Position numbers and translations under genes: made by a program. A stretch of DNA of 64,000 bases from Escherichia coli (GTDB lineage Bacteria > Pseudomonadota > Gammaproteobacteria > Enterobacterales > Enterobacteriaceae), in assembly GCF_003334385.1 (NCBI RefSeq), contig NZ_QOWN01000007.1; one strand, given 5' to 3'. Under the pieces are notes generated by a model. That model searched no databases. It saw only the letters and a list, made by a program, of their open reading frames with translations, and was not told the DNA's origin. Positions 19,180 through 53,694 of the stretch are shown here, piece after piece. Position 1 is the first letter of the stretch; each line of letters starts with the position of its first letter.

Positions 19180-19230
19180 ATGACACGCGTTCAATTTAAA
19201 CACCACCATCATCACCATCATCCTGACTAG
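19180..19230 (+). CDS. hisL: his operon leader peptide HisL
   Basis: MTRVQFKHHHHHHHPD* with seven consecutive His codons. Confidence 0.95.
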   Translation: MTRVQFKHHHHHHHPD

Positions 19231-19293
19231 TCTTTCAGGCGATGTGTGCTGGAAGACATTCAGATCTTCCAGTGGTGCATGAACGCATGAGAA

Positions 19294-19329
19294 AGCCCCC
19301 GGAAGATCACCTTCCGGGGGCTTTTTTAT
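19294..19329 (+). terminator. his attenuator terminator
   Basis: agcccccggaag-atcac-cttccgggggc followed by TTTTTTAT. Confidence 0.9.
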
Positions 19330-27629: not shown

Positions 27630-27738
<109 letters not shown>

Positions 27739-27908: not shown

Positions 27909-28913
27909 ATGAAATTTCTGGTTACGGGAGCTGCTGGCTTTATCGGTTTCTATGTAAGTAAACAGCTTCTTGCAGCTGGTCATCAGGTTGTAGGCATTGA
28001 CAACTTAAATGATTATTACGATGTCAACCTCAAACAAGCACGACTTGATTTACTCAAGCACGACAATTTCAGTTTTTATAAAATTGACCTGGCCGATCGC
28101 GAGATAATGGCGGCACTGTTTGCAGACGAGCGGTTCGATCGCGTAATAAACCTCGCTGCGCAAGCCGGTGTACGTTACTCCCTTGAAAATCCCAATGCAT
28201 ATGCAGATGCAAACCTGATTGGATTCCTGAACATACTGGAAGGATGTCGCCATAATAATGTTCGGCATCTACTTTACGCTTCCTCCAGTTCTGTTTATGG
28301 CATGAACCGCAAGATGCCTTTCTCTACAGATGACTCTGTAGATCATCCTGTTTCGCTGTATGCAGCAACTAAAAAGGCGAATGAACTCATGGCCCATACG
28401 TATTCTCATTTGTATGGCTTACCGACCACAGGGCTGCGTTTCTTTACGGTTTATGGTCCATGGGGACGTCCAGATATGGCATTATTTAAATTCACTAAAG
28501 CCATGCTGGAAGGTAAAAGCATTGATGTTTACAACTTCGGCAAAATGAAGCGTGACTTTACTTATATTGATGATATTGCCGAAGCTATTATTCGCTTACA
28601 GGATGTTATTCCAGAAAAAGATCCACAGTGGGCTGTAGAAACAGGCTCGCCAGCAACAAGTTCAGCACCATATCGTGTCTATAACATTGGTAATAGTTCG
28701 CCTGTGGAGTTAATGGATTATATCAATGCCTTAGAAGAGGCTCTGGGTATTGAAGCCAACAAGAATATGATGCCTCTCCAACCCGGTGATGTACTGGAAA
28801 CCAGTGCTGATACAAAAGCACTGTATGACGTAATAGGATTCAAACCTGAAACGTCAGTTAAAGAGGGGGTAAAGAACTTTGTAGAATGGTATCGTAACTT
28901 CTATAAAGTTTGA
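27909..28913 (+). CDS. NAD-dependent UDP-glucuronate 4-epimerase-like protein (SDR family)
   Basis: 334 aa; GAAGFIGF Rossmann motif, YAATK catalytic motif, [15 protein letters not shown] region resembling UDP-GlcA 4-epimerases. Confidence 0.75.
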
Positions 28914-28935
28914 TTTTATAAAACCATAATAAATA

Positions 28936-28959
28936 TCCTCCGGCATAGCCGGAGGTTTT
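28936..28959 (+). terminator. Hairpin plus T-tract downstream of the epimerase gene (terminator, or part of the IS200 right end)
   Basis: cctccggc-ata-gccggagg followed by TTTTT. Confidence 0.5.
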
Positions 28960-29036
28960 TCAAATGCGCCTATAAGGCTCTCTTACCAGCCGCGCCCTAA
29001 CAGGCGCACACGATCTGACATTTGCATCCAACTTCG

Positions 29037-29495
29037 TTACTTACGGCCCGTAAACGGGCTGCCCGGATAGGGAATCGATAACTGCTCTCCCATTTTATCC
29101 TCTTCAAGCTGGTGCTTTATGTAATCCTGTATCTTCGCCGTGTTCTTACCCACCGTATCGACGTAGTACCCTCTGCACCAGAACTCCCTGTTCCTGTATT
29201 TGAATTTCAAATCACCAAACTGCTCGTAAAGCATCAGACTGCTTTTCTCTTTCAGATATCCCATAAAGCCGGATACGCTCATTTTGGGCGGGATCTCCAC
29301 AAGCATATGGATATGATCTGCACAGCATTCAGCTTCAAGAATCCGTACGCTTTTCCACTCACACAGCTTTCTCAAAATACAGCCTATTGCTCTACGCTTC
29401 TCTCTGTAGAACACTTGTCTTCGGTATTTTGGCGCAAAAACTATGTGATATTTACAGTTCCATCGGGTGTGCGCTAAGCTCTTTTCGTTCCCCAT
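29037..29495 (-). CDS. tnpA: IS200-type transposase TnpA (HUH Y1 transposase)
   Basis: 152 aa from MGNEKSLAHTRWNCKYHIVFAPKYRR; contains HxH (HIHMLV) motif. Confidence 0.85.
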   Translation of the reverse strand: MGNEKSLAHTRWNCKYHIVFAPKYRRQVFYREKRRAIGCILRKLCEWKSVRILEAECCADHIHMLVEIPPKMSVSGFMGYLKEKSSLMLYEQFGDLKFKYRNREFWCRGYYVDTVGKNTAKIQDYIKHQLEEDKMGEQLSIPYPGSPFTGRK

Positions 29496-29650
29496 TGGGA
29501 CCCCCTTTTGATTTCTTGTTTGACACTTGCAGTTGCCAGACCGCAAGGTGTTTTAACAAATCAAAAGGGGTTATAATAACTGGCTCAAAGCTGAAAGCTT
29601 TCCGGAACCCCCAGCCTAGCTGGGGGTTTTCTTAGTATGAAACAAAATAA

Positions 29651-30817
29651 TTAATCATTGCCAAACAAGTCGCGCGTATAAACCTTATCTGCTACATCAG
29701 CCAGATCGGCAGACATACGGTTAGAAATAATAACATCAGCTTCTTGTTTGAACGCATCCAGATCACGTACCACGCGCGAACGGAAAAAATCGACCTCTTT
29801 CATCGCTGGCTCATAAACGATTACTGGCACACCTTTAGCCTTGATTCGCTTCATAATACCCTGAATCGAGGAAGCACGGAAATTGTCTGAACCACTCTTC
29901 ATAATCAAACGATAGACGCCAACAACTTTCGGTTTACGTGCAAGGATAGAATCGGCAATAAAATCTTTGCGCGTGCGGTTGGCGTCAACAATTGCCGAGA
30001 TCAGGTTATTCGGCACAGACTGGTAATTTGCCAGTAACTGCTTAGTATCTTTCGGCAGACAATAACCACCATAACCGAATGACGGGTTGTTGTAGTGATT
30101 ACCGATACGCGGGTCAAGGCATACGCCCTCAATAATCTGGCGTGAATTAAGCCCCAGGCTTTCAGCATAACTATCAAGTTCATTGAAATACGCTACACGC
30201 ATCGCCAGATAGGTGTTGGCAAAAAGTTTAATCGCCTCAGCCTCGGTTGAGTCAGTAAACAATGTTGGTATGTCTTGCTTAATAGCGCCTTCCTGTAATA
30301 ACGCTGCAAAACGTTCTGCGCGGTCGGATTGCTCGCCAATCACAATGCGTGATGGGTGTAAGTTATCATAAAGTGCTTTACCTTCACGCAAAAACTCAGG
30401 CGAAAAGATCACATTTTCAATACCAAACCGTTCTTTAATGGACTCTGTAAAACCAACAGGGATAGTTGATTTTATAATCATTACAGCATTGGGATTAATT
30501 TCTGTCACATCGCGAATGACCGCTTCCACGCTTGAGGTATTAAAATAATTTGTTTTCGGATCATAATCGGTAGGTGTGGCAATAATAACGTAATCGGCAT
30601 TTTTATACGCGTCATACTTATCTGTCGTAGCGCGGAAATTGAGATCTTTAGTCGCCAGATACTCTTCAATCTCCTTATCAACAATCGGTGACTGCTTCTT
30701 GTTAAGCATGTTCACTTTGGCCTGAACGATATCCAGTGCAACCACTTCGTGATTTTGCGCAATCAGAATACCATTTGAAAGACCAACATAACCTGTTCCT
30801 GAAATTGTTATTTTCAT
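29651..30817 (-). CDS. ugd: UDP-glucose 6-dehydrogenase Ugd
   Basis: 388 aa from [16 protein letters not shown]. Confidence 0.95.
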
Positions 30818-31010
30818 TAGCTCTGACTTCTTCCGGTTAAACATTTAGAGTGGTCATTAATCCACCACCACAACTTCATCTACTGCGGGATTTTTAACGC
30901 TGATGTAGATGAACTGTCAAGGCAGCGATCCTGCTGTGCGGCGCTGTATTATATCGCGTTTTTAACTATAAATTATAAAAAAAGGCCATAACCTGCCGCT
31001 TTGTATAATA

Positions 31011-31065: not shown

Positions 31066-32472
31066 TTAATCCAGCCATTCGGTATGGAACACACCGTCTT
31101 TATCAATGCGCTTATAAGTATGCGCACCGAAATAGTCACGCTGTGCCTGGATCAGGTTCGCAGGAAGAACAGCGGCACGGTAGCTATCGTAATAGGCAAC
31201 CGCAGCGGCGAAGGTCGGAACCGGGATACCGTTCTGTACTGCATAAGCAACGACATCACGCAGCGCCTGCTGGTAGTCATCGGCAATTTGCTTGAAGTAC
31301 GGAGCCAGCAGCAGGTTAGCGATCTGCGGATTTTCGGCATATGCATCGGTGATTTTCTGCAGGAACTGCGCACGGATGATGCAGCCAGCACGGAAAATCT
31401 TCGCGATTTCGCCGTAGTTCAGATCCCAGTTGTATTCTTCAGACGCAGCACGCAGCTGAGAGAAGCCCTGAGCGTAAGAAACGATTTTGCCCAGATACAG
31501 CGCACGGCGAATTTTTTCGATGAACTCAGCCTTGTCGCCTGCTGGCTGTGCTTGCGGGCCAGAGAGAACTTTAGATGCGGCAACACGCTGATCTTTCAGA
31601 GAAGAGATATAACGTGCAAACACAGACTCGGTAATCAGCGACAGCGGTTCGCCGAGATCCAGCGCGCTCTGGCTGGTCCATTTACCGGTACCTTTGTTAG
31701 CCGCTTCATCCAGAATCACATCAACCAGGTAGTTACCGTCTTCATCTTTTTTGGTGAAGATATCTTTGGTGATGTCGATCAGGTAACTGCTCAGTTCACC
31801 GTTATTCCACTCGGTAAACGTCTGCGCCAGTTCTTCGTTAGAAAGATTCAGGCCACCTTTAAGCAGAGAATAGGCTTCAGCAATCAGCTGCATATCGCCG
31901 TATTCAATACCGTTGTGAACCATCTTCACATAGTGACCTGCGCCATCGGCACCAATATAGGTAACGCATGGCTCACCGTCTTCAGCCACTGCGGCGATTT
32001 TAGTCAGGATCGGCGCAACCAGTTCATAGGCTTCTTTCTGTCCGCCAGGCATAATGGAAGGACCTTTCAGCGCACCTTCTTCACCGCCGGAAACACCGGT
32101 ACCAATGAAATTAAAGCCTTCTGCAGAAAGCTCACGGTTACGACGAATAGTGTCCTGGAAGAAGGTATTACCACCATCAATGATGATGTCACCTTTATCG
32201 AGGAATGGCTTGAGGGAATCAATAGCAGCATCCGTGCCTGCACCTGCTTTCACCATTAACAGGATGCGACGAGGCGTTTCCAGAGATTCAACAAACTCTT
32301 TCACCGTATAGTAAGGAACCAGTTTCTTGCCTGGATTTTCGGCAATCACTTCTTCCGTCTTTTCACGGGAACGGTTGAAAATAGAGACGGTATAACCACG
32401 GCTTTCGATGTTGAGCGCAAGGTTGCGCCCCATCACTGCCATACCGACGACGCCGATCTGTTGCTTTGACAT
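31066..32472 (-). CDS. gnd: 6-phosphogluconate dehydrogenase (decarboxylating) Gnd
   Basis: 468 aa [21 protein letters not shown]. Confidence 0.95.
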
Positions 32473-32576
32473 TGTTTACTCCTGTCAGGATTGCCGCTTT
32501 GATGGTGGTATTTAAAATGATGTAAACATACACCTTTATTATCATAAATAATGAACCAATAAAAGTGTTGCCTCGA

Positions 32577-33587
32577 TTAATCATAACCCTTTGGATTTTT
32601 GAGTTGCCAAAGCCAAGCATGCTTCAACATGTCCTCAAGATTATATTTTGCGCTCCAACTTAATTCAGCTCTAATCAATGATGGATCGGCCCAGCATTCA
32701 GGCACATCACCCTTTCGTCGTTTGGAGATACGATAAGGAACAGAGACATTATTAACTCGCTCAAATGTATTTACTATCTCTAATACAGATGAACCAACAC
32801 CCGTACCTAAATTATAAATATGTAGACCATTTGTTTTTTTATTATTCAATGCAGCTATATGTCCTTCAGCTAAATCGCAAACATGAATAAAATCTCTGAT
32901 TCCAGTTCCATCAGGCGTACTATAATCATCGCCATAAATGGTCAAATACGGCAAATCCCCAATTGCGACTTTAGTCACGTAAGGTACTAGATTATTAGGA
33001 ACTCCTAGAGGATCCTCTCCAATCTCTCCTGAAGGGTGGGCACCAATAGGGTTAAAATATCTAAGAATAGTTATATTCCAATCGCCATCAGATTGAATTA
33101 AATCCATCAAAATTTGTTCGACCATATGCTTACTGGTCCCGTAAGGATTTGTAGTTCCTCCAGTTACACATTTTTCAGTTAATGGCATATTATCTGGCAG
33201 TCCATATACAGTCGCAGAAGAACTAAATATAATATCCTTTATCCCATTTATACACATTAACTGCAATAAGTTTAACGTTCCAACTACATTGTTGTGATAA
33301 TATGTTAAAGGTGCCCTACTAGATTCTGAAACTGATTTCAATCCAGCAAAATGAATAACCTTATTAATATCATGTTTAGAAAAAATTTCTTGCAGAGATT
33401 CAGCATTACAAATATCATAATCATAAAATACAAATTCTCCACCGCTCAGCGCTTTTATTCTGTCAATCACACTTGCTTTAGAGTTTGAAAAATTATCAAC
33501 AACTATGACGTTATATTTTAACTCAATCAATCGAATTAAAGTATGAGAACCTATATATCCTAAGCCACCAGTAACTAATATGTTCAT
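32577..33587 (-). CDS. gne: UDP-sugar 4-epimerase (GalE/Gne family)
   Basis: 336 aa, TGGxGYIG and YGTSK motifs; AT-rich; position at gnd-proximal end of O-antigen cluster. Confidence 0.8.
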   Translation of the reverse strand: MNILVTGGLGYIGSHTLIRLIELKYNVIVVDNFSNSKASVIDRIKALSGGEFVFYDYDICNAESLQEIFSKHDINKVIHFAGLKSVSESSRAPLTYYHNNVVGTLNLLQLMCINGIKDIIFSSSATVYGLPDNMPLTEKCVTGGTTNPYGTSKHMVEQILMDLIQSDGDWNITILRYFNPIGAHPSGEIGEDPLGVPNNLVPYVTKVAIGDLPYLTIYGDDYSTPDGTGIRDFIHVCDLAEGHIAALNNKKTNGLHIYNLGTGVGSSVLEIVNTFERVNNVSVPYRISKRRKGDVPECWADPSLIRAELSWSAKYNLEDMLKHAWLWQLKNPKGYD

Positions 33588-33605
33588 GTTGTTTCCTTTA
33601 CAATG

Positions 33606-34727
33606 TCAAATGACATTAAATAATTTTCTTTTAAAAAGAATACATAACCAAGTAAAGGTAAAAAAGTAAGGAATTGCAGTTGTTCCGAGTGACATTGATG
33701 CTATCAAAAATGGAAGCACGATGACAATAGCATCCTCTTTGAGGTAAATGCACATAATGCATAATAATACTAAAAATAAAAATAATCCAATCATGCCAGT
33801 TTCAATTAAGAAAGTCAGAAACAGATTATGTGCCCCCATACCAATAACATCGACTGCATTTCCAAGACCAACCCCCAGCAATATCACCTCAACATTATTA
33901 TTCTTAATGTATTCGAGTGAATACCTAATTAAATCAAATTTACTTTCAAAGCTTATATCATCCGTGAATTTTTTAAATACAAACCATGAAAGAACAATAA
34001 GTAATACTGGCATAAGCATATATGAGAAAGCTTTGATGCGCTTATTTTTCATTAGAACAGAAAGCACAAAAAGCAATATCATTGCTATGATAGCAGCCCT
34101 AGAGAAAGTTAAAACAACCCCAACAAATAAAGCACAAAAAACAAGAAAGTATCTTACGCGCAATAAACCAACAATTTTAATATCTCTGAAGAAATAAAGA
34201 AAACAGGATAATATAAAAACAGCTTCTAGACCAACAAAGTTGGAATCGGCATACATAAGTGAGTTTACTTTATATATTTGAAAGCCGATACCCAGTTCTT
34301 CTAACTTATCAACATTTGCAAGATACGGATGTTGAATTCTCCAAAAACCATCAAGAATGAAAACGAATGAATAAAACAAGAAAACATTCAATAAATTTCT
34401 TTTTGTAATGCTTCGTCCCTTATAATAAAAATCCACCAACATTGGAGAAAGCAGCACCATACACAGATTAATTACAAGTGAAAAATGCGAGTTTATAAAA
34501 AGGAAAGTTGACAATAGTGATATAATAAGACTTATGAGTGTGAAAAAAGAAACATCCCATTTCCTGCAACTAACATTTGTAAGAAAAACCAAAATCATTG
34601 AAAGAATAAAAATAAAATAAACAGGACTAATCGCAGTTATTTGGGTTATATATAAACCACAAGATATCAACCATAAAAGGCCGATAAATGAGATTTTTTT
34701 ATCAGCATTATTATTTTCAAGTTTCAT
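33606..34727 (-). CDS. wzy: Putative O-antigen polymerase Wzy
   Basis: 373 aa, highly hydrophobic, about 10 predicted TM segments, very AT-rich, no conserved enzymatic motif. Confidence 0.6.
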   Translation of the reverse strand: MKLENNNADKKISFIGLLWLISCGLYITQITAISPVYFIFILSMILVFLTNVSCRKWDVSFFTLISLIISLLSTFLFINSHFSLVINLCMVLLSPMLVDFYYKGRSITKRNLLNVFLFYSFVFILDGFWRIQHPYLANVDKLEELGIGFQIYKVNSLMYADSNFVGLEAVFILSCFLYFFRDIKIVGLLRVRYFLVFCALFVGVVLTFSRAAIIAMILLFVLSVLMKNKRIKAFSYMLMPVLLIVLSWFVFKKFTDDISFESKFDLIRYSLEYIKNNNVEVILLGVGLGNAVDVIGMGAHNLFLTFLIETGMIGLFLFLVLLCIMCIYLKEDAIVIVLPFLIASMSLGTTAIPYFFTFTWLCILFKRKLFNVI

Positions 34728-35782
34728 TTTTCACCAATAAGTTTCATATATATATTAAATGTCTTTTCTGAAATCACATCAAACGAATATTTTTCGTTGA
34801 CCATATCTATTCCAGTTATATTAACACCCATATATTTATTTATATCAAACTTATCTTTATTATTGCAAATAAATCCACAAGAACCGTTATTTATCATTTC
34901 ATAAGCAAGCCCTCCCATTTCCCCAATTATCGGATAGACACCATTAGCAAGTGCCTCCAACACAACATTTGGCATACCTTCTCGCTCCGATAAATGTATT
35001 AGGAATTGAGAACGACACATTATTTCATTAATTTTTTGATGTTCAATTTTACCTAAAAAATGGATATTATTACTACTAAACTGCTTACAGTTCAGCACAT
35101 AACCTGCTTCAAAACCATCAAGACTTTCATTATCGGGGCCAATTATCAAAAGTTTATATCCTTGGTTTTCAAAATTATCTTTATAAAATTTTATTCCTTC
35201 TATTATTTTTTTTCTTGGTATAATTGCAGATATTATTAAAACTATTTTTTCCTTAATCTGTTCATTCCCGTACATACAATCAGGGGCACTGACGCCATTT
35301 GGAATAGTAACCAACCTAGTGATGGGAATGTATTTACTATTAATTTCATATATTTGTTTCGATAACGTATTGTTTATCGAAATAAACCTCAACAACCAGT
35401 GCTTAAGAGACCTCAAAGAACCACGATTTATCAATGTATGGAAATCATCACAATCCAATAAAGTTGATTTCCAATAGACAGGTATTTTGAAAATAGCACA
35501 AATACCAAGAAGACCAAAATCAGCCCCATGGAAATGAACAACATCCGGTTTAATAGATTTACACAAAAGAAAGAACTGCCAAAATCTTTTATATGATGAA
35601 GATATTTCCATTACACTGAATTGAACATCCTCACTTAATTTAGAAATACGATTCTGGCATCTAGTCACAAAAATTTGTTCGATATTGGGGGCATGTTTTT
35701 TTAAAGCCTTTGCTAAATTTTTTGCTTGAAGAGATGCGCCGCTAAAGCCATAATAATTATGTACTATATGGATCACTTTCAT
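34724..35782 (-). CDS. Glycosyltransferase, GT-B fold (GT4-like)
   Basis: 352 aa with C-terminal EREGMPNVVLEALANG motif. Confidence 0.75.
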   Translation of the reverse strand: MKVIHIVHNYYGFSGASLQAKNLAKALKKHAPNIEQIFVTRCQNRISKLSEDVQFSVMEISSSYKRFWQFFLLCKSIKPDVVHFHGADFGLLGICAIFKIPVYWKSTLLDCDDFHTLINRGSLRSLKHWLLRFISINNTLSKQIYEINSKYIPITRLVTIPNGVSAPDCMYGNEQIKEKIVLIISAIIPRKKIIEGIKFYKDNFENQGYKLLIIGPDNESLDGFEAGYVLNCKQFSSNNIHFLGKIEHQKINEIMCRSQFLIHLSEREGMPNVVLEALANGVYPIIGEMGGLAYEMINNGSCGFICNNKDKFDINKYMGVNITGIDMVNEKYSFDVISEKTFNIYMKLIGEK

Positions 35783-35991
35783 TTATATATTTTTCTCTTT
35801 GAAAACCTAATAGAAAACATTTTAAATTTATTTACTATTGTGCTGTCTATAATAAAATTTTTGCTATCACACAACACACAAAAAAGGTAAAACCATTGAA
35901 ATAACGTTAATAATATTTTATTACCGTCAGTTTTTTGGTCTTCAATACACCTTTACCTCAAGTGAATTCACCTTACACAAAGCAAGCGTAC

Positions 35992-37215
35992 TCAAATATA
36001 ACAATCGCTATTTTTAGCATCTCGAATGCTACATTTTATCGCATAACCGATAATACCCAAGTTGAAAAGCATACCAATTATAGAATAAATGTATATGAAA
36101 TCTATAAATGATAACTTCATATAAAAGCTATAGCATACAGCCATTACTCTAAATACCAATAGGAACATATCATAGATAAATAAAGATCTGAATCGTCCAA
36201 TAACAGTTAAATATGAAGTTGAAGTAACATTAGCAAAAGATACCAAGAGCCACCATGCTAAAGCTGAAGCTATTTCACCAGCGCCTTCCCATTCTTCACC
36301 TGCATAAATTTTAAAAAAATCAGTTGCAAATAAATTAATGAGAATTATTCCGATCATACTTAGAGATAGTAATAAGATCGAGCTTCTCCATATTATATTT
36401 GATAAAAGACGATAATTTCTTTTATTCCTATTTAACTCTCCCAGAATATATGGTCTAACGGCATTTGTGAAAAAAATAATTGGTACCTGAGTTAATCTTA
36501 CAGCCAAGCCATACAGACTTACAATATAAAAACCATATTGTCCAGAAATAAAAAGAACTGGCAATTGTGAAGAAAAAGAACTAGCAAGAGACTGAACAGA
36601 GCTCAAACCGGCTTCTCTGATCTTCAAAAAACTCACTTTAAACTTAAATTTTCTATTAAGTTTTCTTCCTAGTTTTAAGCAAAATAGGATACATATTATT
36701 TGAGATAATAGAAAGCTCACAATAAGCCCATTTTTAGAAAACTTAAACAAAATTAATTGTAATACAACTAAGCTTGAAGTCCTAATGATATTTAATATTA
36801 TTATGGTTCTGTAATAAGAATACAGACTAAAGTAAGACGTATATAACTGCAATATCGCAAAGGTAAATATTGATGGAGCAATAACAAGGTAACTTATATC
36901 AAATTTAAAAAAATAAAATAATGCTCCAGTCGCAATTAAACACAATAAGGATATGCATATTGCGATAACAAGTCCATTACAAAAACATATGTACCACGAA
37001 TATTTGTCATCGAAATTATACATTATCTGATCATATCTACCGCACGCAATAACTCCCAATATTAAAACCACTGCCATGATAGTAGAATATATACCAAAAT
37101 CACTTGGTTGATAAATTCTTGTAAGTAAGGGGGTGCCTAATATAACAATAATTTGTGCTAATGCATTACCACCGATTACTTTACTTATGGTGGTACTTAT
37201 TTTTTTTAGAGACAT
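35992..37215 (-). CDS. wzx: O-antigen flippase Wzx (MOP superfamily)
   Basis: Multi-TM; LLTRIYQPSDFGIYS motif; start uncertain (ORF extends to 37305 and overlaps the upstream GT). Confidence 0.7.
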   Translation of the reverse strand: MSLKKISTTISKVIGGNALAQIIVILGTPLLTRIYQPSDFGIYSTIMAVVLILGVIACGRYDQIMYNFDDKYSWYICFCNGLVIAICISLLCLIATGALFYFFKFDISYLVIAPSIFTFAILQLYTSYFSLYSYYRTIIILNIIRTSSLVVLQLILFKFSKNGLIVSFLLSQIICILFCLKLGRKLNRKFKFKVSFLKIREAGLSSVQSLASSFSSQLPVLFISGQYGFYIVSLYGLAVRLTQVPIIFFTNAVRPYILGELNRNKRNYRLLSNIIWRSSILLLSLSMIGIILINLFATDFFKIYAGEEWEGAGEIASALAWWLLVSFANVTSTSYLTVIGRFRSLFIYDMFLLVFRVMAVCYSFYMKLSFIDFIYIYSIIGMLFNLGIIGYAIKCSIRDAKNSDCYI

Positions 37216-48799: not shown

Positions 48800-49285
48800 T
48801 TTTTTGCCTGATGCGACGCTGGCGCGTCTTATCAGGCCTACAAGACCCGAGCACAGAACCGTAGGCCGGATAAGGCGTTCACGCCGCATCCGGCATTCAG
48901 TGCCTGATGCGACGCTGACGCGTCTTATCAGGCCTACAGGTCCCGAGCACAGAACCGTAGGATGGATAAGGCGTTCACGCCGCATCCGGCATTCAGTGCC
49001 TGATGCGACGCTGGCGCGTCTTATCAGGCCTACAAGACCCGAGCACAGAACCGTAGGCCGGATAAGGCGTTTTACGCCGCATCCGGCATTCAGTGCCTGA
49101 TGCGACGCTGGCGCGTCTTATCGGGCCTACAAGATCCAAGCCCTGAACCGTAGGCCGGATAAGGCGTTCACGCCGCATCCGGCATTCAGTGCCTGATGCG
49201 ACGCTGACGCGTCTTATCAGGCCTACAGGTCCCGAGCACAGAACCGTAGGATGGATAAGGCGTTTTACGCTGCACCCGGCAACCG
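48800..49285. repeat. BIME array: about 10 REP palindromic units in alternating orientation
   Basis: Repeated gcctgatgcgacgctg(g/a)cgcgtcttatcaggcctac and gtaggccggataaggcgttcacgccgcatccggc units. Confidence 0.9.
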
Positions 49286-53608: not shown

Positions 53609-53694
53609 GTCGTTACCCTTTTTCAGGCAATAGTTGGCCCTGACCGAAACGGCCAATTTTGTTTTTGTCGTTATTTACATCTCGGTTTCGCATT

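Follow-up and report, generated by a model that had tools for sequence, protein, structure and literature searches.

Insertion sequences of the IS200/IS605 family move as single strands (“peel and paste”), and their Y1 HUH transposase recognizes subterminal hairpins. For IS608 of Helicobacter pylori, guide bases 5' of each hairpin foot have been found to read the cleavage sites, and insertion occurs 3' of a short target (PMC3201880). The IS200 of Salmonella is 707 bp long and comprises a terminator hairpin at nt 12-34, a stem-loop at nt 69-138 that sequesters the SD sequence, and art200/STnc490 (PMC4513863). In addition, terminators upstream of IS200/IS605 elements were reported in a preprint (10.1101/2025.07.22.666184). 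Our literature search yielded these three sources (for the IS608 rules, the IS200 anatomy, and the upstream terminators, respectively) and no base-level statement of the target of IS200C, the element considered here.

The copy that we analyzed lies in a 64,000-nucleotide stretch of Escherichia coli DNA (contig NZ_QOWN01000007.1; hereafter, the window). A preliminary description of this DNA had placed an apparently intact IS200-family element at 28930-29645, just downstream of ugd. As judged from its sequence, this feature is a copy of IS200C, already annotated as such, which lies at the border of an O48-type O-antigen locus, with ugd on one side and an epimerase gene on the other. The family assignment and the position thus hold, based on matches to Y1_Tnp, transpos_IS200, and STnc490 and on the RefSeq annotation of IS200C at the identical locus of strain VE-T2. 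The IS200C-derived segment occupies 28928-29632 on the minus strand and corresponds to nt 7-711 of a 711-bp unit (705 bp), as established by alignment, consensus, empty-site comparison, reconstruction, and the RefSeq annotation of the identical locus; the portion that is unambiguously derived from the IS is 28930-29626. It is the only copy of the element within the 64-kb window. Compared with a consensus built from six copies, the segment has five substitutions (700 of 705 nt identical), and BLAST identities to other IS200C copies range from 98.0% to 98.6%.

The sole gene in the 705 bp is tnpA (29037-29495, minus strand, ATG start), which encodes a 152-aa Y1 HUH transposase identified by Pfam, NCBIfam, and residue alignment, in line with the open reading frame already proposed. 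The protein matches Pfam Y1_Tnp PF01797 over model positions 2-121 of 121 (8.2e-37) and NCBIfam NF033573 transpos_IS200 with 143.5 bits (cutoff 55), and no tnpB-like ORF accompanies its gene. The noncoding ends measure 137 nt on the left and 109 nt on the right, within the approximately 100-145 bp previously estimated. The two strong hairpins noted earlier at the left end are also real, and there is a third, at the right end, that had gone unmentioned. The left subterminal hairpin, cccccagcctagctggggg / AACCCCCAGCTAGGCTGGGGGTT (29606-29628, minus strand), is a 10-bp hairpin with a single-stranded DNA fold of -12.6 kcal/mol (z = -3.55); it aligns with positions 1-23 of the Rfam STnc490 model, matches the bidirectional terminator at IS200 nt 12-34, and is presumably the hairpin bound by TnpA. 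Upstream of tnpA follows a long stem-loop of the SD-sequestering type, ccccttttgatt/aatcaaaagggg (29502-29570, minus strand; fold -21.6 kcal/mol, z = -6.5). Together, the left hairpin and the long stem-loop, both of which are much more stable than shuffled sequences, give an end-to-end match to Rfam STnc490 (RF01405, the IS200 5'UTR) that scores 144 bits (gathering score 56), and by analogy with IS200 an art200 antisense RNA would be expected on the plus strand at approximately 29487-29576. The right subterminal hairpin, CCTCCGGCTATGCCGGAGG (28937-28955, minus strand; single-stranded DNA fold -10 kcal/mol, z = -2.9), is terminator-like on both strands. The stems of the left and right hairpins resemble each other, and terminal inverted repeats are absent. 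A second match to STnc490, at 28876-28957, was set aside (20.6 bits against the gathering score of 56, E = 0.37), as it reflects merely the likeness of the right hairpin to the left one. A promoter scan of 28700-29800 found no sigma-70-like promoter, a result that is uninformative, although it fits the weak, undefined tnpA promoter that has been reported.

In architecture and regulatory elements the window copy resembles Salmonella IS200, and it matches the full length of the STnc490 model that was built on the 5'UTR of that element. However, Salmonella IS200 is another isoform, a few per cent divergent, and in a plasmid search Salmonella IS200F copies matched IS200C only from nt 8. With IS608 it shares a Y1 HUH TnpA (phmmer 1.7e-17 to 2a6m), subterminal hairpins, and a right tip approximately 9-10 nt 3' of the hairpin foot; canonical IS200C copies have in common with IS608 an insertion 3' of a short target without duplication. 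IS608, in contrast, carries tnpB and targets TTAC 19 nt from its left hairpin, whereas IS200C lacks tnpB and has a T-rich pentamer as its left flank, 10 nt from the hairpin foot, with a putative pairing of guides and cleavage sites that is modeled on IS608. The RAYT (TnpA-REP) proteins have a distantly related Y1 HUH fold and are linked with extragenic palindromes, but the window protein scores only 31.5 bits against NCBIfam REP_Tyr_transpos (cutoff 80) and its gene is flanked by IS200 ends, not by REPs. REP/BIME-type sequences do occur elsewhere in the window, as four tandem Rfam naRNA4 matches (71.6-79.7 bits) at 48864-49223 on the plus strand, intergenic within the colanic-acid/O-antigen region; other RNA elements in the window are a JUMPstart at 43477-43515 (minus), an algC RNA motif at 53613-53662 (minus), and a His leader at 19206-19329 (plus).

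The right end of the element faces the gene for an NAD-dependent (UDP-glucuronate-type) epimerase (27909-28913, plus strand, stop codon at 28911-28913), a convergent neighbor that is not disrupted by the IS. On its upstream side is ugd (29651-30844, minus strand), which has the same orientation as tnpA and lacks its own terminator. The outer neighbors are wzzB to the left and gnd to the right. Over 1801 bases around the element, the E. coli strains VE-T2 and VE-T10 match the window at 100% identity, and two other strains do so at 99.9%. In VE-T2 (NZ_AP027960.1), the RefSeq gene order is gndA, ugd, “IS200/IS605-like element IS200C family transposase,” NAD-dependent epimerase, wzzB, hisIE, and the locus adjoins an “O48 family” wzy; the element is thus known and already named in the public annotation of identical genomes. 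The gap between the epimerase gene and wzzB also holds a small gene remnant (window 27630-27734, minus strand), the equivalent of which in VE-T2 is annotated by RefSeq as “incomplete hypothetical protein, missing N-terminus.” The VE-T2 chromosome (NZ_AP027960.1) also matches IS200C at a second place, outside the segment equivalent to the window, which could provide TnpA in trans. More generally, element-like sequence was found in 3164 of 5426 complete E. coli genomes, at up to 35 places per genome; IS200C places in complete E. coli genomes number roughly 10,000. The GC content is 0.32-0.39 over the O-antigen cluster (32000-44000) and approximately 0.50-0.54 in the flanking his and colanic-acid regions. 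Low GC is the usual mark of horizontally exchanged O-antigen genes.

The ends were set by aligning the window copy with copies at unrelated sites (dsbA-yihF, gnd-ugd, wzzB-hisIE, ugd-epimerase in an 87%-identical lineage, and several plasmid sites). Similarity among the aligned copies extends from GTGCACAGAAAACCCCC to ...CCGGAGGATATTTATT, and canonical IS200C is 711 bp long, GTGCACAG...ATATTTATT, based on six sampled copies and on nine independent copies together with two empty sites. The comparison with other copies and with IS-free loci, which the preliminary description had proposed as a check, thus provided base-level ends as well as a probable insertion point, after TTTTCTT. The start of the interval first given was accurate (the true right end is at 28928-28930), but its end lay 13-19 nt too far out (the true left boundary is at 29626-29632). 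The right-end tip of the window copy, ATATTTATT (28928-28936, minus strand), where similarity among independent copies stops, has TTATT as its last bases. By analogy with IS608, this pentanucleotide would be the right cleavage site, and it resembles the T-rich pentanucleotides that flank canonical left ends. We rejected a right end overlapping the epimerase stop codon, although BLAST alignments reached 28909 and, for one plasmid copy, 28900, as a chance extension through AT-rich flanks; the multiple alignment stops at ...ATATTTATT.

At each of the nine independent canonical sites, the left end directly follows a T-rich stretch that ends in TT and is itself preceded by a host hairpin, with left-flank pentamers of TTTTT, TTATT, TTCTT, TCATT, or TGTTT, and tnpA shares the orientation of the terminated gene. 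The empty wzzB-hisIE and dsbA-yihF sites show that canonical insertion occurs inside the T-run of the terminator and, as had been anticipated for this family, without duplication (with an ambiguity of 1-2 nt owing to the T-run). A-rich bases precede both hairpins on the 5' side, AGAAAA for the left hairpin and GAAAAA for the right one. This suggests, from what is known of IS608, that the A-rich guides of IS200C pair with T-rich cleavage and target sites; in the window copy, the A-rich stretch that precedes the foot of the left hairpin, within 29627-29632, would form the left guide. The hexamer GTGCAC precedes AGAAAA in nine of nine canonical copies, and plasmid copies of Yersinia IS1541 match from query nt 1. 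Because GTGCAC is constant despite unrelated outer flanks, and is also present in IS1541, it is part of the element.

In other lineages, canonical copies occupy three more intergenic sites of the gnd-ugd-wzz-his segment: one between gnd and ugd in E. coli WCHEC96200 and approximately 27 similar genomes (L005), one between ugd and the epimerase gene in the lineage of strain CT30 (L004; an independent insertion at an analogous site), and one between wzzB and hisIE in strain 14EC020 (L006). They are co-oriented with gnd, ugd, and wzzB, each directly behind a terminator T-tract, and look like repeated independent targeting of terminators, not shared ancestry. In the CT30 lineage, the annotation gives the epimerase gene (L004 2820-3824) as a pseudogene, interrupted by an internal stop. 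In some plasmid copies (L021 780-830, pLKJULY7989; H181-H183), the left end is degenerate (GATGCACAGACCCCCCCCCAGCCTAGCAGGGGG) and contains a poly-C run and a mutated hairpin, so the window copy is not alone in showing left-end decay.

A query with the sequences flanking the window copy retrieved 269 genomes that carry this ugd/epimerase allele. The IS is present in four of them (span 1651 bp) and an IS1 in one, and every other genome among the matches listed (MB30 and more than 50 with the same span) has a 979-bp span that represents the empty site. Read in the orientation of the IS, the IS-free allele of MB30 consists of CATACTAAGAAAAGGCCCTAATAAATTAGGGCCTTTTCTT up to the insertion point and ATGGTTTT beyond it, that is, ...CATACTAAGAAAA, GGCCCTAATAAATTAGGGCC, TTTTCTT, and ATGGTTTT in succession; the window allele reads CATACTAAGAAAA-CCCCCAGC...ATATTTATT and then directly ATGGTTTT. 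At the empty site, GGCCCTAATAAATTAGGGCC and TTTTCTT make up a strong, bidirectional terminator (-16.5 kcal/mol, z = -5.7). The right junction of the window copy is exactly what a canonical insertion after GGGCCTTTTCTT of this ugd/epimerase terminator would produce, and the plasmid copy L016 follows an identical ...GTTTTCTT tract. The left side lacks IS nt 1-6 (GTGCAC), the T-tract, and the host terminator hairpin of the IS-free loci, and the flank is CATACTA in place of the T-tract. With 27 nt of host sequence found in IS-free alleles missing, a one-step canonical insertion was rejected. As for target duplication in the window copy itself, the right junction is canonical, the left is a deletion junction, and the original target was reconstructed. 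Where canonical spacing from the hairpin would place a pentamer ending in TT, the window has GTTTC; TGTTT occurs one base further out than the canonical position (TTGTTT, then CATACTAAGAA, then the hairpin), so some residual cleavage at the left end may still take place. The variant left tip reads CATACTAAGAAAACC..., with CATACTAAGAAAACCCCCAGC as the sequence that marks the variant, and among the 5426 complete E. coli genomes this junction was detected only in the four with this locus.

At the left junction there is a microhomology, AGAAAA (29627-29632, minus strand), which occurs in the host DNA immediately before the lost terminator and again at IS200C nt 7-12. When the consensus IS was placed after TTTTCTT in the empty site and the 39 nt between the AGAAAA repeats were removed, the resulting sequence and the window differed over 1401 nt by 10 substitutions and by no indel. 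The predicted intermediate, in which the host terminator is followed by the full-length IS at this site, would have the junction GGGCCTTTTCTTGTGCACAGAAAACCCCC beside this ugd allele. A 120-nt reconstruction of this junction was covered to at least 80% in none of the 5426 complete E. coli genomes, and we therefore infer the two-step order from the reconstruction only.

In the transposase itself, the HUH histidines (H61 and H63, in H61-I-H63) and the catalytic Y125 and Q129 are present and align with the HUH motif and with Y127/Q131 of IS608; among diverse representatives, His occupies the two HUH columns in 144 of 148 and 146 of 149 cases. Two of 152 residues differ from the commonest IS200C TnpA: S39C (base 29381), at a position that is variable, and G83E (base 29248). 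Position 83 is part of a K-G-x-S motif; of 149 diverse relatives, 139 have Gly at this position and one has Glu, and the four solved homologs that were aligned all have Gly, and from this conservation G83E would be expected to impair TnpA. The exact protein, listed in 310 index blocks, was read on 24 contigs, in every case in the context gnd-ugd-tnpA-epimerase-wzz; the three loci returned for the exact variant have identical junctions, and the same variant at a second site, which would be a sign of recent movement, was not found among those 24 contigs. Members of the IS200/IS605 family are cleaved on the left within the flank, which they require for further transposition (PMC3201880), and by analogy the loss of the outer 6 nt together with the T-rich left flank may disable the copy. 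Overall, the window copy is likely stranded, either immobile or strongly impaired, because the T-rich cleavage/target site and the outer left tip have been lost and because G83E falls at a nearly invariant Gly. The term “apparently intact” is thus apt for the full-length reading frame (with no frameshift), the catalytic residues, and the left-end regulatory structures, but not for an element that has lost GTGCAC, the T-tract, and the adjoining host hairpin, carries G83E, and is known as an exact protein from a single locus on the 24 contigs read. Relative to IS200C as annotated in RefSeq (“IS200/IS605-like element IS200C family transposase”), it has the same hairpins, the same 5'UTR structure, and the same TnpA but for two residues; the differences are the missing nt 1-6, the missing hairpin and T-tract flank of every canonical copy, and S39C and G83E.

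Loss of the 39 nt would have deprived the convergent ugd and epimerase genes of the only terminator that separated them. The left-end hairpin of the IS now directly follows ugd, and its counterpart in Salmonella IS200 is a bidirectional Rho-independent terminator (PMC4513863). On the plus strand, the right-end hairpin, followed by TTTTT, lies 24 nt after the epimerase stop codon and was scored as terminator-like in the terminator scan. The left hairpin on the plus strand was not among the results of that scan, possibly because a G-T extension of the stem uses up the T-run. From these predicted terminators and the analogy with IS200, the end hairpins of the IS probably terminate the ugd and epimerase transcripts.

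The history that we consider probable begins with a canonical insertion. IS200C would have inserted, without duplication, directly on the 3' side of the T-tract (after GGGCCTTTTCTT) that belongs to the bidirectional ugd/epimerase terminator, and a deletion of 39 nt between the two AGAAAA direct repeats would then have taken the host hairpin, the T-tract, and IS nt 1-6. The remainder (nt 7-711) would have retained a full-length tnpA with its regulatory 5'UTR, as well as the two subterminal hairpins, and the copy, most likely immobile or impaired, would simply have been inherited with the segment that flanks the O-antigen genes, its two end hairpins now replacing the lost terminator between the convergent genes and probably ending both transcripts. 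The absence of the intermediate allele from the 5426 genomes would also fit a single aberrant event, in which an IS strand cut within the left tip was linked, by TnpA or by replication slippage during integration, to the host strand before the terminator hairpin, so that insertion and hairpin loss coincided; GAAAA precedes both the host hairpin and the left hairpin of the IS, and on single-stranded DNA the host terminator could mimic an IS end. However, a normal insertion after TTTTCTT would give precisely the right junction observed, and a 6-nt repeat flanking two adjacent palindromes is a classic substrate for slipped-strand deletion that needs no special transposase chemistry, and we regard the single event as improbable.

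Even less probable, in our judgment, is that the copy is fully intact and transposition-competent, a canonical insertion that starts at or inside AGAAAA, with the differences at the left tip belonging to the flank. It is true that the ORF is complete with its catalytic residues, that the two subterminal hairpins are unharmed, as are the A-rich bases on their 5' side, and that the ends of IS200 have long been difficult to define. Nevertheless, GTGCAC belongs to the element (as seen in nine of nine canonical copies and in the IS1541 plasmid copies), the missing host hairpin could not be produced by seamless insertion, G83E alters a Gly conserved at 93%, and the variant was present at no other locus among the 24 contigs read. 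A further possibility is that the copy has been kept as useful, not as a neutral relic but as a domesticated remnant whose hairpins are the only ugd/epimerase terminators and/or whose 5'UTR and art200 RNAs act in trans. This would be consistent with IS hairpins in the place of the vanished host terminator, with perfectly conserved RNA elements, and with the occurrence of the allele in many assemblies (310 index blocks). We find it rather unlikely, however, in that a few substitutions and one deletion are predicted equally by neutral decay, and tnpA still has an open reading frame, for which a function purely as terminator creates no need.

Beyond this one copy, IS200C may be a dedicated “terminator-seeker,” the A-rich guides of which would pair with the T-tracts of intrinsic terminators on the lagging-strand template, so that the element lands harmlessly and transcriptionally insulated behind genes; at this site, a later deletion would have left the IS hairpins as the sole terminators of two convergent sugar-nucleotide genes. 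We offer this as a tentative idea, about which we are more doubtful than convinced. An orientation on the lagging-strand template is expected for the IS200/IS605 family (PMC3201880). The plus strand of the window has negative GC skew throughout, placing the top strand of the IS on the G-rich strand (the lagging-strand template), a measure that is confounded by gene orientation. Were the idea correct, the window would offer a modest example of a host terminator recruited from the end of an IS.

It had also been suggested that the location of the element could contribute to serotype-switching recombination. This finds no support in the window, which has a single copy and, at the site, no rearrangement beyond the 39-nt deletion; terminator targeting, seen also at nine other sites, explains the position at the edge of the O-antigen region without a role in switching. 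As the element was already annotated, the importance of these results goes little beyond annotation hygiene, but the base-level ends of IS200C and their context of terminator T-tracts are a useful addition. T-tract targeting explains why the element recurs at several intergenic sites of the gnd-ugd-wzz-his region without invoking O-antigen switching. Further, a full-length tnpA can sit in an element that is stranded by a clipped end and a change at a conserved Gly, and counts based on tnpA only would therefore overestimate the number of mobile copies.
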